64,000 bases of DNA from Mobula hypostoma (Eukaryota): assembly GCF_963921235.1 (NCBI RefSeq), contig NC_086108.1, positions 41,790,001 through 41,854,000 of the forward strand. Direction: 5' to 3'. Within the stretch, counting starts at the first letter, position 1; every line of letters starts with the position of its first letter. The notes under the pieces were generated by a model. That model searched no databases. It was given only the letters and a program-made list of their open reading frames with translations, and was not told the DNA's origin. Positions 2,345-63,547 of the stretch are shown here, piece by piece. The position numbers and the translations under genes were made by a program.

Positions 2345-2410
2345 GAAGTTGCCTGACTCACTGAGTGTTCCTATTTTTACTTCAGATATCCAGCATCTGC
2401 AATTTTTTTT
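2345..2410 (+). mobile_element. Degenerate Penelope pLTR end
   Basis: GTTGCCTGACTCACTGAGT...TCCAGCATCTGCA resembles the pLTR terminus seen at 43885-43960 and 48970-49030. Confidence 0.5.
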
Positions 2411-4384: not shown

Positions 4385-5390
4385 GTACAAAATTGACTTG
4401 ATGGACCGAGTCAGTAGGTGGTTGTGAAGGGTTGATTTTCAGATCGAATGCCTGTCACCAGTGGTGTGCCACGTTGATCAGTGCTGGGTGGCTTGATAAG
4501 TAAGCTAGCAGCTGATAGAAAATTGGTGGTGTGCTGGATAGTGGAAAGGGCTGCCTGAGGTTACAACAGTATCTAGATCAACTGGTAAAGTGGGCAAAGA
4601 AAGAGCAGGTGAAATTGAATTCAAGCAAGTCCTAAAGTGATACATTGTGAGAACTAAAGCAGGGCAAGACTTGCACAGTAAATGACAGGATTACGATGAG
4701 TGCTGTAGAACAGAGTAACCTAGGGATACAAGAACACGTTTCCCTGGAAGTGGTGACACAGGCAGACAAGGTGGTGAACAATGCACATGGCATGTTTATC
4801 TTCACAGAATGGGCATGGAGGACAAGAGCTGGGATTTCACAGTACAGTTATACGAACTTATAGCAAGACTGCACCTGGAATATTGTGTGCAGTTCTGGTC
4901 ACCACATCATAAATATATGGTTAAGCTGGAGAGGGTACAGAAAAGAATCATGAGAATTTTGCTTGAGTTATCAAGGAAAAAAAGAGAGCATAGACTGTAT
5001 TCCCGGATAAAAGAAGGCTAAGTGGTGACCTCGGAAAAGATTATAAAATGATGAGTGGCATATGTAAAATTGATGGTCACAGTCTTTTTCCAAGCGTAGA
5101 GGTCCAAAACTACAAGGCAAAGATTTAAGGTGAGATAGAAAAAAATTATAGGGGCATGAGGGGGCAGACTTTTCACATAGAGGGTGAATGGACATATGGA
5201 TCTAGCTGTCTGAAGAAACAGTAGAAGCAGGTACAATTTCAGTACTTGAAAGACATTTGGTTGGGCGATAAATAGGAAATGTTGAGAGGGTTATGAGCTA
5301 CATTCAGACAAGTGGCACCAGCTCAGGAAGGCACATGGGTTGGCATGGATGAGTTAAGCTGAAGGGCATGTGTTTCTGCTGACTTCATGA
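4385..5390 (+). mobile_element. Degenerate CR1 LINE (RT C-terminal half plus 3' UTR)
   Basis: Remnants of VTSGVP, LEYCVQFWSP, LERVQKR; CR1-like 3' tail; many stops and frameshifts. Confidence 0.85.
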
Positions 5391-5399
5391 CACCTGTTG

Positions 5400-5760
5400 A
5401 CAATGGCTCAGTTAATACCTTAGCACTATTCTCTCTGCATCAAAAGATTTCCAAAGGATCAAACACAAACAATCCAGGAGGACACTCCTCTGCAGCATAG
5501 AGGGCTTCCTGCACTATAAAGGGATGCTATCTTTGGGATTTAATTTTCAAAAGAGGCAAATCAAATTTCCTAAATGCACCCCTGACAAAGAGCAAAGAAG
5601 TTTTTCCCTGATCAGCAACTGAAGTCAATTTCCACATTTCTTTGTGGGATAGCTGAAAACATATTAGCATCTACATTCCTGATGTTTCAACAGTGGCTAC
5701 ATAGAGCACGCTATAAACTTTTGAAGTTATGAAAGGTACTGTGTAAACACAAACCTACTT
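5400..5760 (+). mobile_element. Ancient Deu-domain SINE (SacSINE1/AmnSINE1-like)
   Basis: Degenerate matches to recalled Deu-SINE blocks (GACACTCC..TGCAG, GAAGAGCA..GAGTT, TTTGTGGGA, CAACAGTGGCTACA, TGAAAGG...TAAA); recognised from memory only. Confidence 0.55.
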
Positions 5761-8685
5761 TTCTTCTTAAATTCTATGCAGCATATAAGGTATCATGGGA
5801 ACATTTGTTTTCCTTCTGTTCTTATAAAACTGCAACAACCAGAATTCAACACAAGAACCTTTAACACTTGCAATCACAAAGCAAGTAAAAATGAAATTGC
5901 CATTCTTGTTACAGTGATAATTACTCAACGATGACAATTAGCAATTCAGCACACAAATGGCAAAGCATCAATGTTTTTCAATGGCTTATACAATGAAAGA
6001 ATTTAAATGAAAGTCGAGCTGATAGCATAGATTGGCGTGGTCTATGATTTAATAGGATGGATGATTGTGCAAGCTTACAAATGTTTTGAGGTTGATGTCA
6101 AACATTATAGCCAGACTGCCAAATAGAGATATTCAGGCACTAGCCATTGGATTGTCAGCAATGAGTAAATTCTACAGAGAAAATTATTGCCTCAAGGGCT
6201 ACAAAATTCACCAGAGGAAGAAAGCAGAAGAGGAAAATATATTTTACATCATGTAAAATTGCAAAAGTGGAACTGAACAAGTTGGGAAATATAAATAATC
6301 AATATTATTGTAAAATATTATAAATCTAACAGGAAAGGTGATCATATGTCGTTATGTCCCAACCACATCTGCTGCCTCTCCAATGAAAAGTAAAACAAAA
6401 TTCTGCAAATAGGAAATTAAGTGTGGTAGGTAGTGCACTCACATTACCTTCCATGTCTCCAAAATTGTGATGCAGTGCTGTGAACTTCAGAGATGAGTTC
6501 ATTGCATTTTCTCTACTATATAGGACATTTTCTGCTACTCAACAGAGGTGAATTTCTGAGTATATGTATTGTAAAAATAGTATCAGATACCTTTTGCCAT
6601 TTCGATATTCAGATAGAAATATAGAATTCAGAGATTTTGATCTCATCCGCTTTGAATTACTCTGACCTTTTGATCATAAATGGAGTCCACTGAAATGTTA
6701 TAATAACTTCCTCCATTTATAACTCAACACCCAACCAGTTGTGATCTGCAAAAGTACCAAAAGGCAATTCCATAGATCTAATATGGGAGGGGGTTATGCT
6801 TTTAGAAATGCATTGAATATCAAAATTAAATTAAATTAAATTACATTCATTTTTTTCTCTCTGGTAACCACTAATCCTATTAAAGCTGTTAATTTGTACA
6901 ATAGGAATTTTGAAAGCTATGCATATTGAATAAGACAATACATTGGGTTTCCAGTACTTAGAACTGCACCATCAACTGCTACATAAATTGTTTTTATTAC
7001 GGTCAAAATCATTTAAGTGCCTGTTCAATAAAATACTAAACAACAAAATCACAAAAAATGCTCTACAATCATGTTTTATCATTGAATATTATTCGTCAAG
7101 AACAAACCATGAAACAAAGAGGATGAAATTGAGAGTTCATAAATTGTTCATAAATTAATCATTATTAAATAGAGTGATAATGGAATCTTGAAGGACGTTG
7201 TAGCATGTTAAGATTCTTACTTCACTTTCCTGTAATCATCCATTGCAGCATGAACAATGAGTCACAAACTACTATCAAAGAGAATATGTGCAAGTCCAAT
7301 GTAACCCATCTGAATGTATCAATAAGTGAGTCCAGTTTTACCCATCTGAATGTATGCATGAAGCACTTTTATACAGTTTATGTAGTTGTGGTGCTTGGTG
7401 TCTATCTTGTCCTGCAGTTAACTCAACAAAAGACAATGACATTAGCATTGGCCAGAACTTGAAGAAAGTAATAACAACAGGTGAATGCACACACTGAAAT
7501 TAATCAGCAAAAAAGAACTAGACAGCAACTTGTAGTGAGGCAGCAATACCAAAAATTACATAACTTCAAAATCTACACATTGATTTTCTTTACCTTCATG
7601 AACACAGCATTTCACTTCTAACTTCCATATGGTTTCATAAAGTTCCAGCTTTTGCACATTAATTGCCCACTAAGTTTACCAGAGAAAAAAGTCTAGATTG
7701 TAAATTGTAATTGGAAATTTTCAAGTGCCAAATTCGACTTCTCTTTAATGCACTGCTTCTTTGTTTTTGTCTCTTTTCTTCGATTAATCTAATTCTTTTG
7801 CCCTTTTCTGTTGTTCTTCCTACACCTGATTTTACATTGAATTTATCCACTTTAGTTCCACCTTCGTTGACAGTCCTTGCTCTGTGAATTCTTTGATCCA
7901 CTACCTCTTTGCTATTGTTACTAAAATCATAGCTTCAGCTTTGCCATTGTAAGTTCATACTTCCAGTAAACAGGGAGACAAAATATTTTGAAGTAAAAGT
8001 CTACCAGAACAGAAAATGCCTCAACTTACTTCAATGTAACTAAGTCCAGCTTAAGTAAAGTGTACTTATTGGTACATTGCCAGATGAATTCCATCAGATA
8101 GCTATGCATCCATTGTTTTCATTATTCAATCACGTAAGATCTGAAGTCTATAGGACATAGTAGAAGAATTAAGCCATTCAACCCATCAAATTTTCTCCAT
8201 CATTCAATCATGGCTGATTTATTTTCACTCTCAAACACATTCTCCTGCCTTCTCCCCTTAAACTTTGATGTTCTTACCAATCAATAACTTATCAACTTCA
8301 GCTTTAACTTTATCTTGGACTTTAGAAACAGCTGTGGCAATGAATTCCACAGATTTTCCACCCTCAGGCAAAAGAAATTACTACTCCTTCCTATTCTAAA
8401 GGGATGTCCCTCTGGTCTGAAGCTCTGACCTTTGGTCCTAGACTCTCTCATTATTAGAAATATCATCACCATGTCCTGTGTATCTAGGGCTATCAGTATT
8501 AGTTCAATGAGATTCCCCCTTCATTCTTCTATACTCCAATGAGTATAGGCCCAGAGCCATCAAATGCTCTTCATATATTAACCCTTTCATTCCCAAGATC
8601 ATTCACGCTAACTTCCTCTGGACCTGCTCCAATGCCAACACATTTACTCTTAGATATAAGACCCAAAACTGGTCATAATACTCCA

Positions 8686-9475
8686 AACAACAACATACAT
8701 CAAAGTTGCTGGTGAACGCAGCAGGCCAAGCAGCACCTATAGGAAGAGGCGCAGTCGACGTTTCAGGCCGAGACCCTTCGTCAGGACTAACTGAAGGAAG
8801 AGTGAGTAAGGGATTTGAAAGCTGGAGGGGGAGGGGGAGATGCAAAATGATAGGAGAAGACAGGAGGGGGAGGGATAGAGCCGAGAGCTGGACAGGTGAT
8901 AGGCAAAAGGGGATACGAGAGGATCATGGGACAGGAGGTCCGGGAAGAAAGACGGGGCGGGGGTGACCCAGAGGATGGTCAAGAGGTATATCCAGAGGGA
9001 CAGAGGGAGAAAAAGGAGAGTGAGAGAAAGAATGTGTGCATAAAAATGAGTAACAGATGGGGTACGAGGGGGAGGTGGGGCCTTAGCGGAAGTTAGAGAA
9101 GTCGATGTTCATGCCATCAGGTTGGAGGCTACCCAGACGGAATATAAGGTGTTGTTCCTCCAACCTGAGTGTGGCTTCATCTTTACAGTAGAGGAGGCCG
9201 TGGATAGACATGTCAGAATGGGAATGGGATGTGGAATTAAAATGTGTGGCCACTGGGAGATCCTGCTTTCTCTGGCAGACAGAGCGTAGATGTTCAGCAA
9301 AGCGGTCTCCCAGTCTGCGTCGGGTCTCACCAATACATAAAAGGCCACATCGGGAGCACCGGACGCAGTATATCACCCCAGTCGACTCACAGGTGAAGTG
9401 ATGCCTCACCTGGAAGGACTGTTTGGGGCCCTGAATGGTGGTAAGGGAGGAAGTGTAAGGGCATGTGTAGCACTT
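8686..9475 (-). mobile_element. 5'-truncated Penelope-like element (Neptune type): GIY-YIG endonuclease plus pLTR
   Basis: ORF 9083-9409 has GVIYCVRCSRCGLLCIGETRRRLGDRFAEH; 14-bp TSD GTCATAATACTCCA at 8672-8685 and 9476-9489. Confidence 0.93.
8752..8793 (-). ncRNA. Minimal type I hammerhead ribozyme motif in Penelope pLTR
   Basis: Minus strand reads AGTC-CTGACGA-AGGGTCTCGGCCT-GAAA-C-GTC-GACT: CUGANGA and GAAA cores, stem I AGUC/GACU, short stem II, palindromic ACGU stem III, GUC cleavage triplet. Confidence 0.8.
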
Positions 9476-10320
9476 GTCATAATACTCCAGTGAGGTCTGA
9501 CCATTTCCTTATAAACCTTCAGCATTAAGTCCTTGCTTTGATATTCTAGTCCTCTTGAAATGAATGCAAACCTGCATTTGCTTTCCTTATTACCGACTCA
9601 ACTTGCCAATTAACCTTTAGGGAATCCTGCACTAGGACTCAAGTCCTTTTGCACTTCCAATTTCTGAATTTCCTCCACATTTAGAAAATAGTCAATGTCT
9701 TTATTCCTTCTACCAAAGTGCATGATCATACACTTCCCTGAACAGTATTCCATCTGCCACTCCTTTGCCCATTCATTCTCCTAATCTGCCTGTCCTTTTG
9801 CAGCCTCCCTGCTTTCTCAACACTACCTGCCTCTTTCTTTGTATCATCCACAACTTCGCCACAAAGCCATCAATTCCATTATCCAGATTACTAACATATC
9901 TGTGAACACCACTAGTCATTGACAACCAATCAGAAAAAGACCCCTTTCTTCCCGATCTTAGCTTCCTGCCAGTTAGCCAATCTTCTATCCATGTTAGTAA
10001 CTTTCTTGTAATACCATGGGCTCTTACCTTGCTAAGCAAACCCCTTACAGCATCTTGTCAATGGCCTTCTGAAAATCCAAGTATCCAACATCCATTGACT
10101 TTCCTTTATTTATCCTGTTTTTTATATCCTCAAAGAATTCCAACAAATTTGACAGGCTAGATTTCCCCTTAAAGAAACCATGCTGACTTCAGCCTATTGT
10201 ATCGTGTGCCTCCAAGTAGCCCAAACCCTCAACCTTAATAATGGACTCCAACACCTTGCCAACCATTGAAGTCAGGCTAACTGGCCTATAATTTCCTGTC
10301 TTCTGCCTCATTCCCTTCTT

Positions 10321-12400: not shown

Positions 12401-12641
12401 ACGTAGCCCAGGTGTGCCTATTATTCAAACAACATCCTGTCAAAGCATTGACTCAGCCTAAAAGTTCCATGTTTGTTTTAAATCTATTGACTATAAACTA
12501 CTTGATTGATTTGGAACAGTTTTTGCATCTGTAGAACTAGAATCAAAAAATTGCACTTTCTTAACAACTCACTGATTTCCTATACAAAACAAACTTTTCA
12601 GAAAAGTCAATACTATATTGATTGGAAGAACCATAACTTTA

Positions 12642-12830
12642 AAAAGAGAGAATCTGCAGATGCCAGAAATCGAAGTAATACACGTAAAATACTGGAGGAA
12701 CTCAGCAGGCCAGGCAACATCTATGGAAAAGAGGAAACAGTTGACATTTCGGGCCGAGAAACATTGACTGTTCACTCTTTTCCATGGATGCTGCCTGGCC
12801 TGCTGAGTTCTTCCAGCACTTTATATGTAT
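12642..12830. mobile_element. Fold-back mini-Penelope (two inverted pLTR ends)
   Basis: CTGGAGGAACTCAGCAGGCCAGGCAACATCTATGGAAAAGAG is mirrored by CTCTTTTCCATGGATGCTGCCTGGCCTGCTGAGTTCTTCCAG; axis near 12757. Confidence 0.8.
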
Positions 12831-13029
12831 AACTGAGGATGAATTCTTGGAAAAGATTTGGATACAGAAATTTAGATTATTTCAGAAAGTGTGGGAAAGC
12901 GACATTTAATTCTATATACACTACTCAGATATCAAATCCATAATAAACCATTTTAATGTTGGTAACAACACCTTCCCTTGGAATCTTTCCATAAGATCAA
13001 AATTACCAATCGTAAGTAAGGAAAGCCTA

Positions 13030-13341: not shown

Positions 13342-13737
13342 CTTAAAGAAGCTTAAAGACGGCAAACGTAAAAGAGGTGAACAACAGAAGAGATTCAAAG
13401 ACGTCTTAAAAGCCAACATGAAGAAATGTAACATCGACATCAACAATTGGGAAACCAATGCCAAGGACAGGAAACTCTGGCAAGCCATCATCCGAGAAGG
13501 AACAGCAACTTTCGAAGCCAACAGATGTGCAGAATTAGAAGAAAAGAGAAGAAAATGGAAAGAGAGACAGCAACGACCAAAGCCCGATCTGCCATCTGGA
13601 ACTACCTGTCCTGAATGCAGAAGAACTTTCAAAGCCAAGATTGGACTCATAAGCTACTTGAGAGCCCATAGGTAGATCAACAGAACGAAGACCATCATCC
13701 TTGACCTCGAGGGATAGCTACGACGATGACGACGACT
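13342..13737 (+). mobile_element. RTE-clade LINE 3' fragment
   Basis: QKRFKDVLKANMK...CPECRRTFKAKIGLISYLRAH; (CGA)n-like tail; closely similar to the copy at 34881-35539. Confidence 0.88.
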
Positions 13738-19700: not shown

Positions 19701-22345
19701 AGTTTCCAGTCTAAGAAAGAGCAGATCCACAGAAAATCTAGGTACGATGGAAACTAATCAAGTCTTTGAAATTGATTTGTATCATACTAGCATTGCATCA
19801 GAAGAGTTGGCATTCTCTTGGTTACTCAATACATCCACTGGTTGAGTGGTTCTGATACTGCAACTTTCACTTTGACAATGACTACACAATAAACAAACCA
19901 TCTCAGTTTGGGATAGTGTTAAAAATATAATAGATTCAGATTGTAAAATTTCCAAATAAGACTTCTAAATCCTGTACCACATACACAAGACATCAGAATA
20001 CTTGTAAACTTCTTAGTCAAATGATCTCTGCATTGGTTTCAAGGATTTTGAGAATTTTACTATGAGTACAAGCCACCGACTTTCAATTCTCCCTTCTATA
20101 CAATTCAGGCATATTCCCGGTGTTGCCTCAGGTAATCTTTATGTTTGAATATAAACACATGAATTAAACACACTATTACACAAAGCTGAAGAGCATACTG
20201 GAAATGGTGTGAATGTGGCACTTTTGAAAGTATAGTGGTCATGACACACTTTATTTACTGTAATTGAGTTGAAATTTATGCCAGAGTTAGAGAACACCAG
20301 CTGTTAAATGGTTGACAAAGAGGGGAAGTTTAAAGCTAGTTTAGATTTAAGATTAACAGTCCCCTTAGGAAACTGAATCTGAGGTCAAACATTTTTTTTA
20401 TTTAGCTGTATTGTTTGTTGCGGTACTTGTCATTCCTGGGGATTCTTCTAAATTAAACTACACCCAGGGCGTTTACTCATGGTATGAGTGACCAGTCTCA
20501 TATACTGTATTTTTGCTAACAATTATGCATTCTGAAAAATAACTCAATTCTTTTTTTTGTGCTTGGAAGAATGGCTTTCAAAATGCAACGACATAGAGAA
20601 TGAAGCAAACCTGTTCAAAGAATGCACGACAAAATGCCATCAGGATGAGCCCATGTGCAATGCCCAGGATTAGGGACTCCATGTAAGTTAATTTTCTTTT
20701 CATCTGTACTTGCAAATAATTGAAGATGAAATCTCACACAATTAGTCTATATAAAGGCATTTGCTTTTTCAGTCATAAGAAAATCAAGCAAAAACCTCAG
20801 GGCTTTGGAGTAAAATTGATGTTAAGAGGTCCTGGCTATCTGTAGCATTATCCTACTGGTAGGGGAGATTGAAACAGAGAGCTGGATTGCAGATTCTAAT
20901 GGATGAAAATGATTAAAAGATCCCGTGCCACAATTCAAAGATGAGAGGGAGGCCTCTCAGTTCTGACAGAAGATTCCTCCCTACGACTGCCACCAAAATG
21001 AAGCAACATGGTAAATCAAGTAACTGCTGTTTCTAGAATCCTGCTGATTATAAAGTGCTGCCAGATTTCCCTCTAAAGCAAGTCATGTTTTTTAACAGAA
21101 TTATGGTGCTTTAGAAACAGAAGTCTTTCTTTGACCGTCTGTACCTGACATAAAATTTCTAAAGGCCCGTAGAACTCTCTGACTGAGTGATAAATTATCT
21201 ATGCTTATACTCAGAATCAGATCTTCTCTGATTGGCATAAAAATTGACCTTTTTAAATAAGAGTTTAAAACATAGTTCAACATGCCTTCTCAATTACAGG
21301 GGAAGGAACTGTTTTCCAATCTTGTTTCATTTATGAATGATCAGAACCTGGATCCTCTAATTAAACCAACACAGCTGAGCTAAATAGTCTTGTTATATCT
21401 ATATTCCTCACATAATTTTAAAAAGTCTGAATTATATTCTCACTTTATTTATGCTGAAGAAAATAAGCTGCAGATGCTTGGATCATTCTGACCAGTTTCC
21501 GTGAACATTGTCCAACAAGGAAAGCGCTTGCAGCTATGTCATGCCTAGTTTTCATCCCAAGTCCTTCAAAAGTACTTTACAGCCAGTAGTTTTGAAGTCC
21601 TGTCAAGGTAATGATGCCAGAAGTGTGGCCCATGCTTGGCTGCACAGAGGCCTTCACATGCATTCACTATCTATTCCCCACTGCTTATCACTTATCTGGT
21701 GCTAATCCACAAGGTCATACTTGCTGGACCTAATCAGTGAGGTCACCTAACATAATCAGATGTTATGGATGGGTGGAACAAGCCCAATCCACAAACATTG
21801 ACACCCAGTGGAGCCAAGACCACAGTACCACTGTCTGCCTCAACTCTCAATCATTTGGAATGCTTTTGAATGCAAAAGAAATGTCGAGAAAGGAATAATA
21901 ACTAATTTAAAAACACTTAAAGCTACCTATTGCAAACAAAAATCATTTGAAAAAGTTCAATTGAGCTTATTCTTGCCTCTCTTCCTTATGATGTAATAGT
22001 TCCACTAAAATAAATGGGCTCACAGATTCTACAATGGGTCTAATATTAACCAACACACTTACTAAAGAATCTCAGGAAGTTCACATTCAATTGAGGCACT
22101 CAATGAACTGACATCTGACATACTTGGTGGCTGCAATCCATCAGCAAGTTCGCAACTTCCATATATGGAAAAAGGCAACACCTAAATCCCAAGGAGTTCT
22201 CCAAGGATCTGCCAGCAAATTATAGCAGGATTCAGGCGGCTACTTTTAAAGCAGCCACTCATACCTACAAACATAAACACACTGCAGAGATGAATCTCCA
22301 GCTGATCTAGAATTCACCACTTGGAAGGGTGGTGGAACCAGTTCT

Positions 22346-23050
22346 CTTTCAATATTTTTATTATTGATTTATACAAATATACAAGAATACAGAGTACAGG
22401 AAAAAATGTGTCAATACATTAAGCTAAATTGCATATAAAGACTCCTTATCCTGTATTTGTACAAGTCAATTAGTTTGTAACATTGAAAAATAATAATTTT
22501 ATTATATTAAAAAAATCTAACCTACTACCAAGACCGAAGCTGATTAGTAGAAAAAAAAGAAAAAAGATTGTTAGTCATCATCTGTGCTTTAACAGCAAAT
22601 CAAAGGTCTTTAAAATAATTCAGAAGAGGTCCCAACAATGTTTGAAAGTCCTGGTTAGATTCAAAGATAGGACGTCGAATCTACTCTAAATTTAAACATG
22701 ACATCACATCACGTAACCATTGGGGGTGAATAGGAGGGGCTGCATCTTTCCATTTAAGCAAGAGCGTCCTTCTGGCCATAAGAGACATAAAAGCCAAAAT
22801 GTGCAAATCAGATGGCTCCAGAATAATATCCTTTCCTCCAACAATACCAAATAAAGCAGTCAAAAGACTAGGCTTGAAATTTACTTTAAAAAGTATCAAA
22901 AAGGTTTGAAATGCTTCTTTCCAATATTTTCCAAGACTCGGACGTGCCCAAAACATATGAATCAGTGAAGATTCTCCATTATTACATTTATCACTATACG
23001 GAGATACATCTAAATAAAAATGAGACAACTTATCCTTCGTCATATGGGCT
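22346..23050 (-). mobile_element. L1-clade LINE 3' fragment
   Basis: ORF 22681-23091 is homologous to the L1 at 10668-11128 (HMTKDKL...HMFW...ALFG...WK); 11-bp TSD GAACCAGTTCT at 22335-22345 and 23051-23061. Confidence 0.9.
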
Positions 23051-23535
23051 GAACCAGTTCTGACAGTAACTTTCGAAAGGAAATTGGACAATAACTGAAA
23101 AATGAAATAAAATCTGCAGAGCTACAAGAAAAAAGCAGGGAAGTGGACTCACTGGGTCACTCTTTCAATTCAATAGTTCCATTTAATACCAGAGGATGTA
23201 TATAATATACAACTTGAAATTCTTATTCTCCACAGACATCCTCAAAACAGAGGGAAAAAACCCAAACGGTGAATAACAGAAAAAACATAGGAATCCCAAA
23301 GCCCCCTGCCCCCCTCCCACGCACAAGCAGCAGCAAGCAACATCAACTTTCTTTCCCCCCCCACTTATTCCAGCATAAAGCTTCACAATTCTCACTACCT
23401 GCCACCCAAGCAAAAGCAAAAGCAAAGCCCCCAAGGAGAGATCATGGTCTACAGTCCATCAAAAAGAAACTGCTCTCTCCAACATTTCAACGTCCACAGG
23501 CACTGTCTCTTACTAACTAGGGAGAGACAGATATC

Positions 23536-25699
23536 AAACAACAGGAATTCTGCAGATGCTGGAAATTCAAGCAACATACATCAAAGTTGCTGGTGAACGC
23601 AGCAGGCCAAGCAGCATCTGCAGGAAGAGGTGCAGTCGACGTTTCAGGCCGAGACCCTTCGTCAGGACTAACTGAAGGAAGAGTGAGTAAGGGATTTGAA
23701 AGTTGGAGGGGGAGGGGGAGATCCAAAATGATAGGAGAAGACAGGAGGGGGAGGGATAGAGCCGAGAGCTGGACAGGTGATAGGCAAAAGGGGATACGAG
23801 AGGATCATGGGACAGGGGGTCCGGGAAAAAAGACAAGTGGGGGGGGTGACCCAGAGGATGGGCAAGAGGTATATTCAGAGGGACAGAGGGAGAAAAAGGA
23901 GAGTGAGAGAAAGAATGTGTGCATAAAAATGAGTAACAGATGGGGTACGAGGGGGAGGTGGGGCCTTAGCGGAAGTTAGAGAAGTCGATGTTCATGCCAT
24001 CAGGTTGGAGGCTACCCAGATGGAATATAAGGTGTTGTTCCTCCAACCTGAGTGTGGCTTCATCTTTACAGTAGAGGAGGCCATGGATAGACATGTCAGA
24101 ATGGGAATGGGATGTGGAATTAAAATGTGTGGCCACCGGGAGATCCTGCTTTCTCTGGCGGACAGAGCGTAGATGTTCAGCAAAGTGGTCTCCCAGTCTG
24201 CATCGGGTCTCGCCAATATATAAAAGGCCACATCGGGAGCACTGGACGCAGTATATCACCCCAGTCGACTCACAGGTGAAGTGATGCCTCACCTGGAAGG
24301 ACTGTTTGGGGCCCTGAATGGTGGTAAGGGAGGAAGTGTAAGGGCATGTGTAGCACTTGTTCCGCTTACACGGATAAGTGCCAGGAGGGAGATCAGTGGG
24401 GAGGGATGGGGGGGACGAATGGACAAGGGAGTTGTGTAGGGAGCGATCCCTGCGGAATGCAGAGAGGGGGAGGGAAAGATGTGCTTAGTGGTGGGATCCC
24501 GTTGGAGGTGGCGGAAGTTACGGAGAATAATATGTTGGACCTGGAGGTTGGTGGGGTGGTAGGTGATGACCAGGGGAACCCTATTCCTAGTGGGGTGGTG
24601 GGAGGATGGAGTGAGAGCAGATGTACGTGAAATGGGGGAGATGCGTTTAAGAGCAGAGTTGATGGTGGAGGAAGGGAAGCCCCTTTCTTTAAAAAAGGAA
24701 GACATCTCCCTCGTCCTAGAATGAAAAGCCTCATCCTGAGAGCAGATGCGGCGGAGACGGAGGAATTGCGAGAAGGGGATGGTGTTTTTGCAAAAGACAG
24801 GGTGAGAAGAGGAATAGTCCAGATAGCTGTGAGAGTCAGTAGGCTTATAGTAGACATCAGTGGATAAGCTGTCTCCAGAGACAGAGACAGAAAGATCTAG
24901 AAAGGGGAGGGAGGTGTCGGAAATGGACCAGGTAAACTTGAGGGCAGGGTGAAAGTTGGAGGCAAAGTTAATAAAGTCAACGAGTTCTGCATGCGTGCAG
25001 GAAGCAGCGCCAATGCAGTCATCGATGTAGTGAAGGAAAAGTGGGGGACAGATACCAGAATAGGCACGGAATATAGATTGTTCCACAAACCCAACAAAAA
25101 GGCAGGCATAGCTAGGACCCATACGGGTGCCCATAGCTGCACCTTTAGTTTGGAGGAAATGGGAGCAGCCAAAGGAGAAATTATTAAGAGTAAGGACTAA
25201 TTCCGGTAGACGGAGCAGAGTGGTGGTAGAGGGGAACTGATTAGGTCTGGAATCCAAAAAGAAGCAGAGAGCTTTGAGACCTTCCTGATGGGGGATGGAA
25301 GTATATAAGGACTGGACATCCATGGTGAAAATAAAGCGGTGGGGGCCAGGGAACTTAAAATCATCGAAAAGTTTAAGAGCGTGAGAAGTGTCACGAACAT
25401 AGGTCGGAAGGGATTGAACAAGGGGTGATAAAACAGTGTCGAGGTATGCAGAAATGAGTTCGGTGGGGCAGGAGCAAGCTGAGACATAGGTCGGCCAGGA
25501 CAGGCAGGTTTGTGGATCTTGGGTAGGAGGTAGAAACGGGAAGTGTGGGGTGTGGGAAATATAAGGTTGGTAGCAGTGGATGGGAGATCCCCTGAGCGGA
25601 TAAAGTCGGTGGTGGTGTGGGAGACAATGGCCTGGTGCTCCTTAGTGGGGTCATGATCGCGGGGTAAATAAGAGGAGGTATCCGCGAGTTGTCGCTGTG
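23536..25699 (-). mobile_element. Penelope-like element (Neptune type), left arm of inverted dimer: RT, Cys linker, GIY-YIG, pLTR
   Basis: ORF 24289-25323 has MDVQSLYT, GAAMGTRMGPSYA, YIDD; ORF 23966-24292 is GIY-YIG; frameshifted. Confidence 0.95.
23633..23674 (-). ncRNA. Minimal hammerhead ribozyme motif in Penelope pLTR
   Basis: Same sequence as 8752-8793 (CTGACGA...GAAACGTC on the minus strand). Confidence 0.8.
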
Positions 25700-25700
25700 T

Positions 25701-25820
25701 GTGGGAGACAATGGCCTGGTGCTCCTTAGTGGGGTCACGATCAAGGGGTTGTGGGAGACAATGGCCTGGTGCTCCTTAGTGGGGTCACGATCAAGGGGTT
25801 GTGGGAGACAATGGCCTGGT
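25701..25820. repeat. 50-bp tandem repeat, 2.4 copies, derived from the Penelope left arm
   Basis: GTGGGAGACAATGGCCTGGTGCTCCTTAGTGGGGTCACGATCAAGGGGTT starts at 25701, 25751 and 25801; source sequence near 25617-25665. Confidence 0.95.
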
Positions 25821-25895
25821 CTTCAACCCTCCTCTTCTTCATGGACTTCAACCCTCCTCTTCTTCATGGACTTCAACCCTCCTCTTCTTCATGGA
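25821..25895. repeat. 25-bp tandem repeat, 3 copies, at the 5' end of the Penelope right arm
   Basis: CTTCAACCCTCCTCTTCTTCATGGA at 25821, 25846 and 25871. Confidence 0.95.
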
Positions 25896-28244
25896 CACCC
25901 CGCTCTGGTCTTCTGCCTGCTCTGGATCTCTTTATTGCTAACTGCCGACGGGACATCAACTGTCTCGACTTCACCGCACCTTGTCCCCATTCCAACCTCA
26001 CTCCTTCAGAACGCTCTGCTCTCCACTCCCTCCGCACTAATCCTAACCTTATTATTAAACCTGCCGATAAGGGGGGTGCTGTTGTAGTCTGGCGTACTGA
26101 CCTCTACCTTGCCGAGGCACAGCGACAACTCGCGGATACCTCCTCTTATTTACCCCTCGATCGTGACCCCACTAAGGAGCACCAGGCCATTGTTTCCCAC
26201 ACCATCACCGACTTTATCCGCTCAGGGGATCTCCCATCCACTGCTACCAACCTTATAGTTCCCACACCCCGCACTTCCCGTTTCTACCTCCTACCCAAGA
26301 TCCACAAACCTGCCTGTCCTGGCCGACCTATGTCTCAGCTTGCTCCTGCCCCACCGAACTCATTTCTGCATACCTCGACACTGTTTTATCACCCCTTGTT
26401 CAATCCCTTCCGACCTATGTTCGTGACACTTCTCACGCTCTTAAACTTTTCGATGATTTTAAGTTCCCTGGCCCCCACCGCTTTATTTTCACCATGGATG
26501 TCCAGTCCTTATATACTTCCATCCCCCATCAGGAAGGTCTCAAAGCTCTCTGCTTCTTTTTGGATTCCAGACCTAATCAGTTCCCCTCTACCACCACTCT
26601 GCTCTGTCTAGCGGAATTAGTCCTTACTCTTAATAATTTCTCCTTTGGCTGCTCCCACTTCCTCCAAACTAAAGGTGTAGCTATGGGCACCCGTATGGGT
26701 CCTAGCTATGCCTGCCTTTTTGTTGGGTTTGTGGAACAATCTATATTCCGTGCCTATTCTGGTATCTGTCCCCCATTTTTCCTTCACTACATCGACGACT
26801 GCACTGGCGCTGCTTCCTGCATGCATGCAGAACTCGTTGACTTTATTAACTTTGCCTCCAACTTTCACCCTGCCCTCAAGTTTACCTGGTCCATTTCCGA
26901 CACCTCCCTCCCCTTTCTAGATCTTTCTGTCTCTGTCTCTGGAGACAGCTTATCCACTGATGTCTACTATAAGCCTACTGACTCTCACAGCTATCTGGAC
27001 TATTCCTCTTCTCACCCTGTCTTTTGCAAAAACGCCATCCCCTTCTCGCAATTCCTCCGTCTCCGCCGCATCTGCTCTCAGGATGAGGCTTTTCATTCTA
27101 GGACGAGGGAGATGTCTTCCTTTTTTAAAGAAAGGGGCTTCCCTTCCTCCACCATCAACTCTGCTCTTAAACGCATCTCCCCCATTTCACGTACATCTGC
27201 TCTCACTCCATCCTCCCACCACCCCACTAGGAATAGGGTTCCCCTGGTCCTCACCTACCACCCCACCAACCTCCGGGTCCAACATATTATTCTCCGTAAC
27301 TTCCGCCACCTCCAACGGGATCCCACCACTAAGCACATCTTTCCCTCCCCCCCCCTCTGCATTCCGCAGGGATCGCTCCCTACACAACTCCCTTGTCCAT
27401 TCGTCCCCCCCATCCCTCCCCACTGATCTCCCTCCTGGCACTTATCCGTGTAAGCGGAACAAGTGCTACACATGCCCTTACACTTCCTCCCTTACCACCA
27501 TTCAGGGCCCCAAACAGTCCTTCCAGGTGAGGCATCACTTCACCTGTGAGTCGAATGGGGTGATATACTGCGTCCGGTGCTCCCGATGTGGCCTTTTATA
27601 TATTGGCGAGACCCGACGCAGACGGGAGACCGCTTTGCTGAACATCTACGCTCTGTCCGCCAGAGAAAGCAGGATCTCCCAGTGGCCACACATTTTAATT
27701 CCACATCTCATTCCCATTCTGACATGTCTATCCACGGCCTCCTCTACTGTAAAGATGAAGCCACACTCAGGTTGGAGGAACAACACCTTATATTCCATCT
27801 GGGTAGCCTCCAACCTGATGGCATGAACATCGACTTCTCTAACTTCCGCTAAGGCCCCACCTCCCCCTCGTACCCCATCTGTTACTCATTTTTATGCACA
27901 CATTCTTTCTCTCACTCTCCTTTTTCTCCCTCTGTCCCTCTGAATATACCTCTTGCCCATCCTCTGGGTCACCCCCCCCCTTGTCTTTCTTCCCGGACTT
28001 CCTGTCCCATGATCCTCTCGTATCCCCTTTTGCCTATCACTTGTCCAGCTCTCGGCTCTATCCCTCCCCCTCCTGTCTTCTCCTATCATTTTGGATCTCC
28101 CCCTCCCCCTCCAACTTTCAAATCCCTTACTCACTCTTCCTTCAGTTAGTCCTGACGAAGGGTCTCGGCCTGAAACGTCGACTGTACCTCTTCCTACAGA
28201 TGCTGCTTGGCCTGCTGCGTTCACCAGCAACTTTGATGTATGTT
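25871..28244 (+). mobile_element. Penelope-like element (Neptune type), right arm of inverted dimer
   Basis: IIKPADKGGAVV, FYLLPKIHK, GRP, MDVQSLYT, YIDD, linker CKRNKCYTC, VIYCVRCSRCGLLYIGET, then pLTR; frameshifted; the whole dimer is flanked by the TSD GAGAGACAGATATC. Confidence 0.95.
28143..28184 (+). ncRNA. Minimal hammerhead ribozyme motif in Penelope pLTR
   Basis: CTGACGA 28152-28158, GAAA 28172-28175, GTC 28177-28179, stem I AGTC 28148-28151 / GACT 28180-28183. Confidence 0.82.
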
Positions 28245-29551
28245 GAGAGACAGATATCGCTCCTTCCACAGCGACAGAGTAGACAATAGTTGCTATTTCG
28301 ATGTTACAGTCAATCTGAAGCATTGCGTTTTTTAAATTTTGAGTTTCCTGACTCGAGAGTTGGCAAAAACAATTACCGAGTGCAAAGCCCTCCGACAGCC
28401 ACTCTCGCTATCTTCAATGCTCCGGCTCCCGCTACATTTCAGTATGCAATACTGGCAAAAGCTTGTGTCTAAGAGCAGAGTTACAATGATCTGAATGGTC
28501 TCAGCTGCAATTCACAGCTGTCTCAGCATTTGCTAGCCCAATTGAAAATACCTCCACTTTATTTGCATTTTTTCACTACAAGCTCAATAGTCAGCCAGAT
28601 CCTTCCCAAAGCAATATGCAAATCGTCCAATATAATTAGTCATGCGATTGTACTTGGTACTTCAGAATCTATCCACCTTATAAATATATGTTTCCAGAAC
28701 CCCTGTTACAATCTAACTTAAGACGTGCTGAAATTTTATTCCCATCCAGTTCCGTCACTTGACCATGTTGTTGGGGGAAGCACAGAGCTGGAAAGAATGT
28801 AATGAGTATTGGCCACCACGGTCCACTCAGAATGGCTGCCTTAACAGTGACCAGGAAAAATACCTGAGGCAGCAGCGCATCAACACTTTCAGCTGGAAAA
28901 AGTCTTTTATGCCGGGAAAGTAAAGGATAGAAAAATGGGTTTCACGTTTTATTTTTATAAATACTGTATTCTTCCCCCACACAACTCTGATAGGAGTACA
29001 TCTGTCTCAGAATACCACAGAGCTCCTCTAGCTGTGCTATGTCCTCATTATGCAATTTTCTACACCACTGATATAATTCAAAACACATTCGACATTGTTC
29101 AGGCAGTTTTGTGCTGTGCATTGCAGTCTTACAATTGGTTTCTTAAGGGAATTGATTAAACTCACATATAAACTGATGAAATGTGTAAAGTCTCAGATAA
29201 TTGCCTTTCACACTATCATACATTTTAATAGCTATAAGCATAATGATCTTTGATCTTCCTGAGGAACTGCACACATAGAATTGGACCCGTATTAAGTATT
29301 TTGGGGACCAGCTAGCATACATCATTTTTATGCCATGGATGGAACTGTCCATTGAGAAATGAAGGTATACATTGTTGATGCCAACCAGATTTAAAGAACT
29401 GTGTTACTGCAACAAGCGATGTTGGCTGGAAGGGCAAATTGTTTATATTCAGAATGTGCAGAATGCAGAGTTCTAGCCGCAAATAGATTATTCAAAATTG
29501 CATATCAGTATACCTTTAAATGTGCATACAAATTTATTTTTATATAACTTT

Positions 29552-34174: not shown

Positions 34175-36192
34175 CAGTCAAGCGCAGCACCTTTAAGGAC
34201 CATCGCCATGGCTGGAAGCACGGCGGGGGGGAGGGGGTTAGTGTTGCGGGGGGGGGGTTGGTTTCGAAGCCTGGCTGAAATGCAGAGAAATGAGGCCTCC
34301 TCTACCCAGCATCTCGTTGGCAAATGTGCAGTCTCTGGAAAATAAGATTGACGATCTCAGAGGCAGATCTCAATTGTTTGCTGTAACAAGACTTGGTTAT
34401 CTGCGGACACGCCGGATGCAGCAGTCAGACCAGATGAATTTATGGTTTTCAAGATGGATCAGACTGCAGATTCTGGTAAAGAAAAGGGTGGAGGCCATGT
34501 GTTTTTTTGGTCAATTCTCGTTGGTCCTCCATCGTGGTAGTTATGTTGAACTCGTGTTCCTCTGACTTGGAACAGCTGTCGATCAAATGTAAACCATTCC
34601 ATTTGCCTTGGGAGTTCTCATCTGCGATCCTAACAACAATTTACACACCACCAGCGGCCGACTGTAAGCAAGCACTCGTGACACTGCACGATGTCATCTG
34701 CCAACAAGAAACAGCCCATCCTGATGCATTTGAAATTATAGTCAGGGACTTCAACCAGGCCTGTTTAAAGAATACCCTGCCCAATTATCACCAGTATTTA
34801 ACCTGTAGCACCAGAGGTTGCAACGCACGAAACCACTGCTACACTATGATAAGGAATGCCTATCGTTCCTTGCCTAGACTCGTCGTTGTGGCTATCCCTC
34901 GAGGTCGAGGATGATGGTCTTCATTCTGTTGATCTACTTATGGGCTCTCAAGTGGCTTACGAGTCCAATCTTGGCTTTGAAAGTTCTCCTGCATTCAGGA
35001 CAGGTAGTTCCAGATGGCAGATCGGGCTTTGGTTGTTGCTGCCTCTCTTTCCATTTTCTTCTCTTTTCTTCAAATTCTGCACATCTGTTGGCTTCGAAAG
35101 TTGCTGTTCCTTCTCGGATGCTGGCTTGCCAGAGTTTCCCATCCTTGGCATTATTTTCGCAATTGTTGATGTCGAAGTTACATTTCTTCATGTTGGCTTT
35201 TAAGACGTCTTTGAATCTCTTCTGTTGTCCGCCTCTTTTACGTTTGCCTTCTTTAAGCTGGGAGTAGAAGATTTGTTTCAGTAGACGTTTGTCTTTCATC
35301 CGAACAACATGAGCGCTCCATCTTAGTTGGTTCTTGATGATGTAGGCTTCAATGCTTTTTGTTTTTGCTTCATTTAGCACACTGACGTTGGTTCTTCTAT
35401 CTTCCGAGCTGATATTTAAGATGTTTCGAAGACAGCGTTGATGGAACTTTTCAAGTGCCTTCAGATGTTGTCGGTATGTTGTCCAGGTTTCTGCTGCATA
35501 CAGGAGCGTTGGGATTACCACTGTATGCAGTGGCAGCAGTTGCCTAGACTGCATTTTAGTAAATCAGGCCACCTGGCTCTCCTTGTACAATCTGCATACA
35601 GGCAGAGCCCAAAAAGCAAGGCTCCAGAGATTAGATAACTAAGAGGTGGTTACAGGAGGCAGAGGAACGGTTACAGGGTCGCCTTGAGTCAGTGGACAGG
35701 GCCGTGTTCAAGCATTCATCTGAGAATCTAAATGACTATACCAGGGTTGTAAAAGATTTTACCAAAACCACTGTAGCTGAGCGTATCCCAAGAAATTGTT
35801 TAGAGTCTACGACCATCAGAAGCCATGCACTCACTGCTGCCATCAGGTAGAAGGTACAAGAGCCTCAGGACTCGCTCCACCAGGTTCAAGAACAGTTACA
35901 ACCCTTCAACCATCAGGCTCTTGAACAAAAGGGGATAACTACACTCATCTACTGAGGTGTTCCCACAACCAATGATCTCACTTTAAGGAAGCTTTATCTT
36001 GTTATTTTGTGCTCTCATTATTTATTGTTCTCTATTTATACTTGTATTTGCAGAGTTTATTGTCTTCTATGCTCTACTTGATCTAGTTATAGTTACTATT
36101 CTGTAGATTTGCTGCGTATGTCCACATGACAAAGAATCTCAGGGTTGCATGTGGCAAGATATATAGACTCTGATAATAAAATCCACTTTCAA
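34175..36192 (+). mobile_element. Second, internally deleted Rex1/Babar LINE, interrupted by an RTE
   Basis: RPPLPSISLANVQSLENKIDDL, CKPFHLP, DFNQA; 3' portion LLPSGRRY and tail GATAATAAA at about 36170-36190. Confidence 0.85.
34881..35539 (-). mobile_element. RTE-clade LINE 3' fragment
   Basis: Open frame VVIPTLLYAAETWT...QLRWSAHVVRM...CPECRRTFKAKIGLVSHLRAHK; 11-bp TSD TTGCCTAGACT at 34870-34880 and 35540-35550. Confidence 0.93.
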
Positions 36193-36244
36193 CATTTACT
36201 ATACTATTACTGCTTATCTTTGCTACACACTACATTAAATAATA

Positions 36245-36866
36245 CAAGGAGTGATTGATAAGTCGATGGCCTAGGGTAGAAGGAGTCAATTTTAGAAAAC
36301 CTAGCACATTTATTTTTCCTACATGTACACACTTAGTCCTGCGATCGTGGAGCATACGGATCCCTTCTTTGTAGAAGTCGGCATCTTGGACCTGTAGAAG
36401 TGGTCCACAGCAGGGGTGATTGATAAGTTCGTGGCCTAAGGTAGAAGGAAATGAGTTATTAACTTCAAACTTTCTGCATTTCACTCAAAGAGTTGAACTG
36501 CACATGCATGTAACAAAAGCTGTATAACTCATCTCCTTCTACCTAAGGTCACGAACTTATGAAGCACCCCTGCTGTGGACCACCTGGAGGTCCAAGACGC
36601 TCTCATTACATGCACATGCAGTTCAACTCTTTGAGTGATAATGTAAAAAGTTTGAAGTTAATAACTCATCTCCTTCTACCTTAGGCCACGAACTTATCAA
36701 TGACCCCTGCTGTGGACCACTTCAACAAAGAAGGGATCCGTATGCTCCACAACCGCTGGACTAAGTGTGTACATGTAGGCGGGGACTATGTTGAAAAGTA
36801 AATGTGCTAGGTTTTCTAAAATTGATTCCTTCTATCTTAGGCCGCGAACGTATCAATCACCCCTTG
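36245..36866. mobile_element. Mariner-derived non-autonomous element built from inverted transposon right ends
   Basis: TA flanks at 36243-36244 and 36867-36868; TIR CAAGG(A/G)GTGATTGATA; 36721-36801 translates FNKEGIRMLHNRWTKCVHVGGDYVEK*, a mariner transposase C-terminus, mirrored at 36310-36380. Confidence 0.88.
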
Positions 36867-38294
36867 TATTTTATTAACGTTTGTGGTAATATTTTATTTA
36901 TTATGAATTCGTTACATGTTTTGTGTGTGCACTGTGGTCTGGAGGGACGTTGTTTTGTTTGGTTGTATGTATGTAGTCAGATGACAATACACTTGAACTT
37001 GAACTAATGTGTACTAAATATGAAACATTTCAAGAGCTCTTAATATTAAACTCTCTATTCCAAGTGGATTTGTTTAAAAGCTTATCCAATGAACAGTGTC
37101 TCTCCTAATAGTCCTCCATTCTGACATGATGCTATAAAGAGAGGATTATTATTCTGTATAATTCCAAACAAACTAGATTAGAAATTCTATCACATAGGAC
37201 ATGATTTTCTCTACACATTATCTGACTGAACAAAGGTTTGAACTGATCAAGGAATGAGCTTGTAATCTCACAGATCACAACTGCATATAACACAACAGTG
37301 GCATCACTGCAGTTCAGCAACACGGCCATGCCTTTGGGCTGCAGATTAGATTTAAAGAATCAAAATGGTACACCCAAGGGAAGGAGGCACTGACAGAAAG
37401 AAGCAGAAGTGAATGGTGTTATTTAAAGGGATATTTCTAATCTGCATTATTATTGGGCTTCCTTTTGTCAAAGTGGATGATTGGGTTAGCCTCAATGTAA
37501 TAACAGACACATTCAGATATAATTCAGATGAGATATTCTATAATATTTTGGGAGTGTGGGGCCAGCTACTTTGGTTTTGAGTCCTGATGTCCACCCGTCA
37601 CCATCATCTGCAATGTCAAACTGCCTGCTCCTGTAATTCACTCACTCACTCGAAGCAGTAGTTCCCATTCAGAACCATTGCTTCAAGGCCGCAAACTGCA
37701 ACAATGAATCAGAGTTTAGGCGCGGCTCCTGAAATCACGCAGAGTTTCACAAGAGTCTGCAGGTCATCCCACTCACACACAATGCAAGTACACAAAGAAA
37801 AGTTATTTCTCAATGGCATCACTGCAGATTGAACGCACTCATGTGGCCTCTTCCAAAACACAAGAAGCGCTACTGAGAAGAATTTTTCACATAATCCATT
37901 GAGGTAGGCCATACTCAACCCTCCGCGCTACTTCCATATTCCGTGGGATTTATGAAATCACCCTTAGCTTTAACAGTTACTGGCTCCCTAAACTTTGTAT
38001 CGTGATCCTGCAACCATGCTAAGAGGCAGAAAGGACCACAAATATTGAGTAGCTTAGACAATGAACAGTGAGGCCCAGCCTCAAGCCATTACAGATTATC
38101 ACAAATATTTAGACACTGTAGAGATATATTTCAATAAAAAATAATGAACACTATTATGATATATATACTTTTAAACCCATCCAACTGATGTAATATTAAT
38201 TTTAAAACATTTAGCCACATTTCTAAATGGTGATAAGTTGGAACTTTATCATCAAGTGTGTCAAGAACTGCCAACCAAAAAGAACTATCCAGCC

Positions 38295-38680
38295 AATCAG
38301 GTGGAAGCTGGAGGCAAAGTTGATGAAATTGACAAGTTCTGCATGGGTGCAGGAAGCAGTGCCAATGCAGTCGCCAAGGTGGCGGAGAAAGAGTTGGGGC
38401 GCATTACTGGTGTAGGCTTGTAACATGGACTGTTCCACACAGCCAACAAAAAGGCCAGCATAGCTGGGGCCCATGCGAGAGGCCATGGCCACACCTTTAG
38501 CCTGAAGAAAGTGTGAGGAGCTGGAAGAGAAGATGTTGAGAGTACCAGTTCTGCCAGACGGAATGGAAGAGGGCCTGTGGTTGGGTCTGTTGCCAAGAAA
38601 TGAAGTGAAGAGTTTTGAGGCCTTCCTGGTAGTCACACTGATTGTACCATGATGGATGGAGAACTGAGGAGCTGGAGATA
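38295..38680 (-). mobile_element. Older Penelope RT fragment
   Basis: KGVAMASRMGPSYAGLFVG...CTHAELVNFINFASSFH, homologous to the RT at 24289-25323. Confidence 0.88.
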
Positions 38681-42084: not shown

Positions 42085-42920
42085 TTCAAGATGGCACTAA
42101 ATGGCAACTCCTTTGCTTGCATTTTCGGAAACAGCTCTATTTCTAACTTTGAGATCTCTTTTTTTCCCTTTCAAGTTTTTTTGAAGACTCTAACCTGGAG
42201 TTACACACTGACTTTGTTTCTTTGCAGGAATGGGGCCCACTCTCAGGGCCTCATGACCGGCCGTTTTTCGATATTCCAAGGACGCAGTCTGGAAGGTGAC
42301 GCGGCTTCCAGGGTTCCGGATTTCCGTGGCTCTGGCGACAGGCTGATTCAAGGCTAGTATCACTGCCTGATGCGTCGCAGGAGAACACGGAAGATCAGAA
42401 TCAGCAGGCTTGCTGCTGGCTCTATGTCGAGGGACCTGAGCCTTCCTGGGGCCGACTCTCTGGGTACAGACCTCAGAAAAAGCGATGCAACAGGCTTTTA
42501 ACACCATAAACAGCAAGTTGTTTGTTGTGTCTCCCCTCTCGCTGTGAAACGGGGACACCTCTTCTTCCCTTATTAGGGAGAGAGAGCCTGTGGTACATTG
42601 AATACTGGGTGAACGAGTAGTCCTTGGGGTACTGCAAGTCTGTGTTTAATTGATGCTTTGCTGCACACTTGAGTGCTCGGTGGAGAGCGCCAATGCTTTT
42701 TTTGCTGGTGGTGGAGTGGGTGGTCTTTGCCCTGCTGCTGATTGTGCATAGGAAGGGAGGCTGGCAGGGCGGGGGGGGGGGGCTTTGGGGGTTCTAACAT
42801 TTAACTGCCATTCATTCTTTGGGGCACTCCTCTGTTTTCGTGGATGTTTGCCAAGAAAAAGAATTTCAGGATGTATATTGTATACATTTCTCTCACATTA
42901 AATGTACCTATTGAAACCTA
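42085..42920 (+). mobile_element. Unclassified non-coding interspersed repeat
   Basis: Starts CAAGATGGC; a related copy lies at 23170-23535/28259-28470 on the minus strand; interrupts a Rex1 3' UTR. Confidence 0.65.
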
Positions 42921-43084: not shown

Positions 43085-44235
43085 ACTGCAATGATTAAGC
43101 AGCAACACTTCTATCACGATTACCTTCAACACTGGTACACTACAGAGCTATATCTTCAGGGTTCTGCTCAGCTCCATGTACGCTCGCAACTGTATGGTCA
43201 GATTCTGCCTTAACTCCATCTACGTCCTTGCAGATACGACTGTAGTGGGCCGTATCTCAAATAACGGTGAGTTGAAGAGCAGGAAGGAGATGGAAAACCT
43301 CGTGACATGGTGTCATGACAACAACCCTTCCCTCGATGTCAGCAAAACAGAAGAGCTGGTCATTGACTTCTGCAAGGGAGATACGCACATGGCCCCGTTT
43401 ACATCAGTGGCGCTGAGCTTGAGAGAGTTGAGAGTTTCAAGTTCCTACAGATGATCATCACCAGTAGTCTGTGGTGGTCCAACCACATTGATGACACAGC
43501 CAAGAAAGCTCACCAGTGCCTCTACTGCCACAGGAAGCTGAACAAATTTGGCTTGTCCCCTTTGACCCTCATCCATTTTTATCAAGGCACAAATAGAACG
43601 TATCGTATCCCAATGCATCATGACTTGATATGACAACTGCTCTACCTTTGACCACAAGAAACTGCAGGGCATAGTGGACACAGCTCTACACGTCACAGAA
43701 AACAGCTTCTCCTTCATATACTCTCTCTTTATACTTCTCACTGCCTCAGTTAAGCAATCAGCATAATCAAAGACCTACCCACCCAAGGCATTCCAGGCAG
43801 CATTTCTAGGAAGAGGTGCAGTCGACGTTTCAGGCCGAGACCCTTTGGCCTGCAACATCGACTGCACCTCTTCCTAGAGATGCTGTCTGGCCTGCTGTGT
43901 TCACCAGCAACTTTGATGTGTGTTGCTTGAATTTCCAGCATCTGCAGAATTCCTGTTGTTTGCACCCAAGGCATTCTTTCTTCTCCCCCTCCCACTGGCC
44001 AGAAGATGAAACAGACTTTAAGCACATACCACCAGACTCAAGGACAGTTTCTATCCCGCTATTACAAGACTTTTGGATGATCCCTAGTGCAATAAGATGG
44101 ACTGTTGACCTCACAATCTACCTCGTTATGATATTGCATCCTGTTGTTTCCCTGCACTGCACTTTGTCTGTAACTGTAACTCTTCAATCTGCACTGTTAT
44201 TGTTTTACTTTGTACTACCTCATTGAACCGTTGTG
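43085..44235 (+). mobile_element. Rex1/Babar LINE 3' fragment
   Basis: ADTTVVGRISN, LVTWCHDNN, KTEELVIDF, KKAHQCLY; interrupted at 43794. Confidence 0.85.
43794..43962. mobile_element. Fold-back mini-Penelope (pLTR ends only)
   Basis: 14-bp TSD CACCCAAGGCATTC at 43780-43793 and 43963-43976; inverted arms meet near 43846; same pLTR family as 23536-23680. Confidence 0.92.
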
Positions 44236-48880: not shown

Positions 48881-49041
48881 CAAAATGCTGGAGGAACTCA
48901 ACAGGCCACATGCAGCATCTATGGAAAAGAATAAACAGTCCACGTTTCGAGCCGAGACCCTTCCTCAGTCCTGAGTTCCTCCAGCATTTTGGGTGTGTTG
49001 CTCGGATCTCCAGCATCTGCAGATTTTCTCTTGTTTGTGAT
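48881..49041. mobile_element. Fold-back mini-Penelope (second pLTR family)
   Basis: 14-bp TSD TGGAACTAAAACAG at 48867-48880 and 49042-49055; arms CAAAATGCTGGAGGAACTCA / TGAGTTCCTCCAGCATTTTG; hammerhead variant CTGAGGA...GAAACGTG on the minus strand at 48936-48970. Confidence 0.9.
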
Positions 49042-49062
49042 TGGAACTAAAACAGAACTCAC

Positions 49063-59365: not shown

Positions 59366-59581
59366 CCATCAATAACTCCAAAAGACCAGAAGTAGAGTAA
59401 ATACTGTAAGGCTTTTATTAGCAGTAAAATGTGACCTCGACCATGCTGAGTATCTGTCCCGGACTGAGGGAGGAGCAGTGGCACAATCGTCTTTATTCAG
59501 GGGTCTGTGGGAGGAGCCACAGGGGCAGTCAGCAGAGGGCTGTGTCCAGACAGGTAACCCAGTAACAAAATATTCACCACA

Positions 59582-59597
59582 TTCACCCCTCCTTTTT
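59582..59597 (-). promoter_or_regulatory. Polypurine tract of the Gypsy element
   Basis: Minus strand AAAAAGGAGGGGTGAA abuts the TG start of the 3' LTR. Confidence 0.85.
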
Positions 59598-63522: not shown

Positions 63523-63547
63523 GCTTTAAAATTACTGCTAATAAAAT

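Follow-up and report, generated by a model that had tools for sequence, protein, structure and literature searches.

A 4.7-kb insertion at 23522-28258 of the 64,000-nt stretch of DNA analysed here (the window) consists of two 5'-truncated copies of a Penelope-like element (PLE) placed head-to-head with their 3' ends outward, and raises the question of how both copies came to occupy one target site. The initial annotation had proposed that both target nicks primed long cDNAs in a single insertion. In our reading, which we consider likely, the locus records one retrotransposition event of a Neptune-type PLE in which both nicks acted as primers and the products were then joined end to end. The alternatives are a cDNA that copied itself, two successive insertions, a later duplication and an error of assembly, and each is weighed below against the features that bear on it.

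Layout of the insertion and identity of the element

The open reading frames lie on the minus strand in the left arm (23572-25699; pLTR, endonuclease and reverse transcriptase, RT) and on the plus strand in the right arm (26118-28244), so the copies are head-to-head with their 3' ends outward, and the outward-facing pLTRs of the initial annotation are borne out. A blastn comparison of 23572-25699 with the reverse complement of 26118-28245 gave 98.36% identity over 2130 columns, in agreement with the arm positions and the near-identity claimed at the outset, and a second self-comparison recovered both arms as four ungapped pieces. The whole unit is enclosed by a single 14-bp target-site duplication (TSD; GAGAGACAGATATC), as had been proposed: with both strands of the window searched, the 14-mer occurs at two sites only, 23522-23535 and 28245-28258 (plus strand), and there is no copy at the centre of the insertion. 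By chance, a 14-mer of this kind would lie within 50 nt of each end with a probability of approximately 5e-5. The boundary at the right TSD has no second copy in the window at up to three mismatches; one exact 20-nt match to it in metagenome contigs (L001) was set aside as a chance match with unlike flanks.

Four of the five Penelope-derived insertions examined in the window, this one included, have a 14-bp TSD. Among them are the mini fold-backs at 43780-43976 and 48867-49055, which agrees with the earlier view of the insertion as their large form; their arms turn within or beside the hammerhead motif described below, and one arm only carries a tail. No clear TSD accompanies an older hairpin of the same sort at 12641-12834. 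A single 5'-truncated copy of the same family (8672-9489; 787 nt, 97% identical to each arm, 14-bp TSD) interrupts a LINE fragment; the two halves of the latter are collinear with 49332-50672. Other inverted repeats in the window are of different kinds: 1362-1700 (339 nt) and 36232-36880 (649 nt) are non-Penelope, MITE-like fold-backs with long internal inverted repeats, and 13350-13729 and 34880-35259 form a 380-nt inverted pair, 94% alike and 21 kb apart, that belongs to a LINE-like 3' fragment with a terminal C2H2 finger (34937-35563).

The RT was recognised by Pfam RVT_1 in the right arm (E = 1.4e-5) and in the left arm (E = 2.6e-4), both under the gathering score, and DKG and YIDD motifs are visible in its reading frame; a PDB sequence search with the RT stretch returned no hits. 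The C-terminal frame of the same ORF obtained an ESM Atlas feature score of 0.96 to clusters in which 13-56% of members carry PF01541, and a GIY-YIG-like motif (VIY..LYIGET) is visible there, while Pfam gave no hit for this endonuclease region. On these features, 23969-24484 (minus strand) would comprise a Zn-finger-like linker (C-x4-C-xx-C) and a GIY-YIG endonuclease region. The linker, CKRNKCYTC, is present in both arms. A CX2-5CxxC linker between RT and endonuclease is given in the available text of PMC8557442 as a mark of the Neptune and Nematis clades, and by this motif, the sole character used for the assignment, the element is probably of the Neptune (or Nematis) type. An old, diverged Penelope RT fragment, 71% identical to the arms, lies at 38300-38628.

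A candidate minimal hammerhead-ribozyme core, in the motif form taken from PMC4209133 as available, was matched in the left pLTR (23638-23665, minus strand), in the right pLTR (28152-28179, plus strand) and in the third copy (8757-8784). Rfam gave no hit at gathering score anywhere in the window, the hammerhead motifs included, and a PrrB hit near the pLTR was discarded as a chance match. Folding of the 51-nt hammerhead region gave z of about 0, a value that is uninformative for a motif working as a dimer.

Private ends, the central junction and a probable common source

Each arm has an end of its own. The left arm alone carries a 36-nt 'tail' (23536-23571, minus strand) whose end is a recurrent family terminus. 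This stretch matches the copy at 43847-43961 at 93%, and contigs show heterogeneous loose ends before 23535 (210 in X1, from organism A, possibly the source sample, and 176 in X7, from organism B). As the stretch matches that copy and the 210 X1 contigs exit there into unlike flanks, the tail is the family's own sequence. The right arm stops at a shorter, tail-less terminus, near the end of the third copy at 8691. At its other end it has about 250 nt of extra 5' element sequence, a continuation of its ORF that includes the DKG motif (25871-26117, plus strand) and that the left arm lacks. With a tail found only on the left and a 5' extension found only on the right, neither arm was copied from the other.

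The initial annotation had placed a spacer of about 420 bp between the arms. Its length holds (418 nt), but the sequence is not neutral filler, being element-derived throughout. Near the truncated end of the left arm, 25700-25819 (minus strand) consists of 2.4 tandem copies (50 + 50 + 20 nt) of a 50-mer matching element positions 26152-26201 in reverse complement. The two 50-mers are identical, and one change that they have in common is absent from both arms; later slippage would explain this as well as repeated priming does. The orientation switches at 25819-25820, where a 2-nt GT microhomology lies between the two truncated ends; this overlap was read from the window plus the family letters upstream of 25871 (an X10 loose end). 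A 25-nt unit repeated 3.2 times follows at the truncated end of the right arm (25820-25896, plus strand). The 418-nt centre is asymmetric and has no palindrome at the junction. Contig joints on 'opposite strands' across 25699-26117 were considered as support for the inversion and rejected, since any collinear family copy gives them. A literature search, not aimed at such junctions alone and made without key subscription papers on Penelope structure, returned no description of reiterated junctions in Penelope fold-backs.

These ends and this junction bear on two ways in which one arm could have given rise to the other. By self-priming, or copy-back, one cDNA would fold back and copy itself into the second arm, a model proposed for inverted PLE junctions in PMC3846280, whose available text cites palindromes at such junctions as support. 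The arms of the present insertion do share rare alleles and a frameshift (see below), as a copy would. However, the right arm, the only one long enough to have formed the loop, is without the left arm's tail, the left arm is without the right arm's 5' extension, the junction lacks the published palindrome, and both outer ends are recurrent family termini adjoining the TSD. We regard copy-back as improbable overall: its simple form in situ is largely refuted, and copy-back on a longer precursor before integration is possible. An alternative explanation is that a single copy was duplicated in inverted orientation after its insertion, by template switching during DNA repair or replication, processes that typically leave reiterated microhomology junctions. 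Against this, each arm holds element sequence that the other lacks, the flanking host DNA is not duplicated, the outer ends match RT start sites, and the longer precursor that would have been needed at the site has left no trace. A later duplication thus appears very unlikely.

Whether the arms came from the same source was assessed with family contigs from 4 of 24 listed runs, compared over 21600-26117. Among 304 variant rows in all, allele counts were taken from 40, of which 20 lie inside the left arm; abundances are given as summed contig depth, which is not a copy number. At four of these 20 rows, all non-CpG, both arms hold a letter that makes up 0.2-1.4% of the summed X1 family depth, and at nine further rows, at family-variable sites, the arms agree. 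In the remaining seven the arms differ and the right arm holds the family letter, so the differences appear to be private changes of later origin. One base is also missing from both arms relative to the family contigs of all four runs (25480-25490 in the left arm, minus strand, at about 25485; about 26332 in the right arm), a frameshift that interrupts the ORF upstream of the RT core. The extra base was counted in only 28% of X1 depth, so its loss may be common in the species, or the base may have been undercounted. Over 789 nt, the arms differ from each other at 15 columns and from the third copy (8691-9477) at 23 and 20. We infer that the template RNA or RNAs came from one source copy that already carried the frameshift and, being frameshifted, moved in trans; one RNA and two RNAs of that source are indistinguishable. 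The shared alleles could also stem from early gene conversion between the arms. Taken together, the lack of a second TSD, the arm-private ends, the four shared rare alleles and the one shared frameshift make a single insertion event well supported.

The published biochemistry of PAc, a PLE of the Poseidon clade from Anolis carolinensis (PMC11167929, as far as its available text goes), fits priming from both nicks. In vitro, PAc cleaves and extends both target strands, reverse transcription begins at two positions that delimit the tail, which is one-sided and 30-40 nt long, and the PAc protein is predicted to be a dimer. On this model, the endonuclease of the present element would nick the two target strands at positions staggered by 14 bp, and each 3'-OH would prime reverse transcription on element RNA. 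The left arm would begin at the 'long' start site, tail included, and the right arm at the 'short' start site, 36 nt inside. The cDNAs would halt after about 2.2 and 2.4 kb, and their free 3' ends may then have re-primed repeatedly on nearby element sequence, producing the 50-mer and 25-mer reiterations, some of them perhaps expanded later by slippage, before being joined at the 2-nt microhomology. The initial proposal that both nicks primed long cDNAs in a single insertion is supported by the one TSD, the private ends, the shared rare alleles, a probable empty site in a relative (see below) and the PAc data. A more specific version, to which we give somewhat less than an even chance, is that a Penelope dimer primed two multi-kilobase cDNAs at both start sites from one non-coding source, with joining of a polymerase-theta-like kind.

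Age, host flank and integrity of the locus

The arms differ at 35 columns, made up of 26 transitions (12 at CpG), five transversions and four gap columns, with CpG decay present on both arms. These differences are distributed evenly along the arms (chi-square p = 0.84; longest identical run, p = 0.15), without visible gene-conversion tracts. Among the polarised arm differences, which are few, no excess of an A-to-I signature was discernible. The arms diverge by 31/2126 nt (1.46%, interval 0.99-2.07); for comparison, organisms A and B diverge in the unique flank by 9/839 nt (1.07%, interval 0.49-2.04). The two values being similar, the insertion would be about as old as the A-B split, that is, a dead copy of roughly the same age as the split from the nearest sampled relative. 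The initial annotation had suggested that DNA of this shape could be fragile; at about 1.5% divergence, both arms are still intact.

The insertion lies in DNA that the initial annotation had described as a host repeat otherwise collinear across the site. The left flank is indeed a multi-copy host repeat (23169-23521, boundaries approximate), with a summed contig depth of 2,400-6,000 over 23110-23411 in X1, X7 and X9 as compared to about 13 in the unique flank in X1. The collinearity is supported only in part: the sole match to the left flank within the window (23169-23318 against 42767-42915, 74%) stops short of the insertion site, and no window match spans an empty site. Just upstream, 22335-23061 is an L1-like 3' fragment between 11-bp direct repeats; it is present in organisms A and B and absent in organism C, where X9 record 26 connects 22330 with 23047.

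In organism B, X7 contig 20 follows 23214-23535 at single-copy depth, with 11 of 321 nt different. It runs on for 61 nt past the TSD with sequence that fits neither the tail, the start of the right arm nor the rest of the stretch. The contig parts from the window sequence precisely at the TSD, as expected of an unoccupied target, making the empty site in a relative probable; since 11/321 nt differ and the 61 nt were judged by their failure to fit, the contig could be a paralogue of the host repeat. The same contig bears on a history in which two insertions hit one site in succession and gene conversion subsequently evened out their differences. Such a history would accommodate both the great abundance of the family (summed depth in the millions) and the present 1.46% between the arms. 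However, it would require a second TSD at the centre, where there is none, and would have to interlock both truncated ends in one reiterated junction; conversion tracts are not visible, and the organism B contig has neither arm beside the left TSD. Successive insertions are accordingly a highly improbable account.

Long inverted repeats are prone to errors in assembly, so that a locus of this shape could arise as an artefact of fold-back reads. Such errors are noted for PLE inverted repeats specifically in the available text of PMC8557442, and the central junction is not among the X1 contig pieces listed. However, 35 columns separate the arms and both show CpG decay, a fold-back read cannot yield a TSD together with arm-private ends, and the left junction is exact in X1 contig 7. 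This contig is exact over 23318-23557 and crosses the junction between left TSD and tail by 22 nt, under the 31-nt threshold for bridging. We consider an artefact extremely unlikely.

No host exon was found when 300 of 333 stop-to-stop frames of at least 55 aa outside the element were scanned with Pfam, a scan that short exons would escape, and a location in an intron remains compatible with this result. Hits outside the element were retroelement domains or weak, scattered matches under the curated cut-off, with one ALKBH8_N hit just over it (43367-43630). The stretch 20560-20690, which follows a pyrimidine tract and precedes a donor-like GTAAGT site, might be an exon, though each of its three frames contains a stop. 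At 59366-63763 lies an LTR retrotransposon on the minus strand, with LTRs of about 209 nt (90% alike) and broken gag-, RT- and integrase-like frames, which from its motifs we take to be of the Ty3/Gypsy type.

Comparison with known insertions and implications

Similar to rotifer and Drosophila virilis PLEs, the insertion pairs a head-to-head inverted, 5'-truncated copy with outward pLTRs and one TSD. Inverted-repeat insertions of this kind are described for Pen2a_Av and Pen2_Av of Adineta vaga (PMC3846280), with a general scheme in PMC8557442, and large inverted repeats of varying size for D. virilis Penelope (PMC2377424), in each case in the available text. The one-sided tail of 36 nt also falls within the 30-40 nt of published endonuclease-bearing PLEs. 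In contrast to the rotifer insertions, both copies are truncated here (about 2.2 and 2.4 kb) and the partial tandem is absent, the TSD is 14 bp rather than the 8-10 bp reported in the accessible part of the A. vaga cases, and the join is a reiterated microhomology instead of the palindrome reported there. As in the available description of PAc, two RT start sites would bound the tail, both target strands would be cleaved and extended, and the pLTR holds a candidate hammerhead motif; unlike PAc, the present element has the Zn-finger-like linker of the Neptune and Nematis types, and its targets are not obviously AT-rich. L1 twin priming (10.1101/2024.08.27.596794, in the text available) is comparable in that both nicks prime and the ends are joined by microcomplementarity, with duplications or switches at the junction. 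There, however, internal annealing of the second primer to the same RNA gives inverted parts that are largely non-overlapping, whereas both arms here start from the 3' end and share an overlap of 2128 nt, which yields a fold-back.

The initial annotation had also suggested a dsRNA stem that could feed endo-siRNAs or ADAR editing and silence the family, which would depend on transcription through both arms. A transcript of this kind, if made, would form a duplex containing five perfect runs, of 333, 244, 215, 211 and 200 bp. Rearranged Penelope copies in transgenic D. melanogaster have comparable long inverted arms that could form dsRNA, and the available text of PMC3681739 reports siRNAs that match the inverted regions and silence inefficiently. 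The layout, the long arms and siRNA from such arms are all already published for Penelope, and the insertion is a clean, long example of a pattern already described for PLEs. The single locus matters little in itself, being a dead member of a very abundant family, arranged in a way already published. Its value is as a clean data point on how PLEs complete their integration, combining a one-sided tail, arms derived from a single source and a junction with reiterated ends; this step is left open by the in vitro work on PAc, which in its available text did not resolve a two-armed product (PMC11167929). Should the reading with two primed cDNAs and polymerase-theta-like joining be correct, and should such junctions prove the rule among the many two-armed copies of the genome, dual target priming would be favoured over self-priming, and this type of end joining would be identified as the host step that completes PLE integration. 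The two-armed copies genome-wide would make self-priming and dual priming directly countable.
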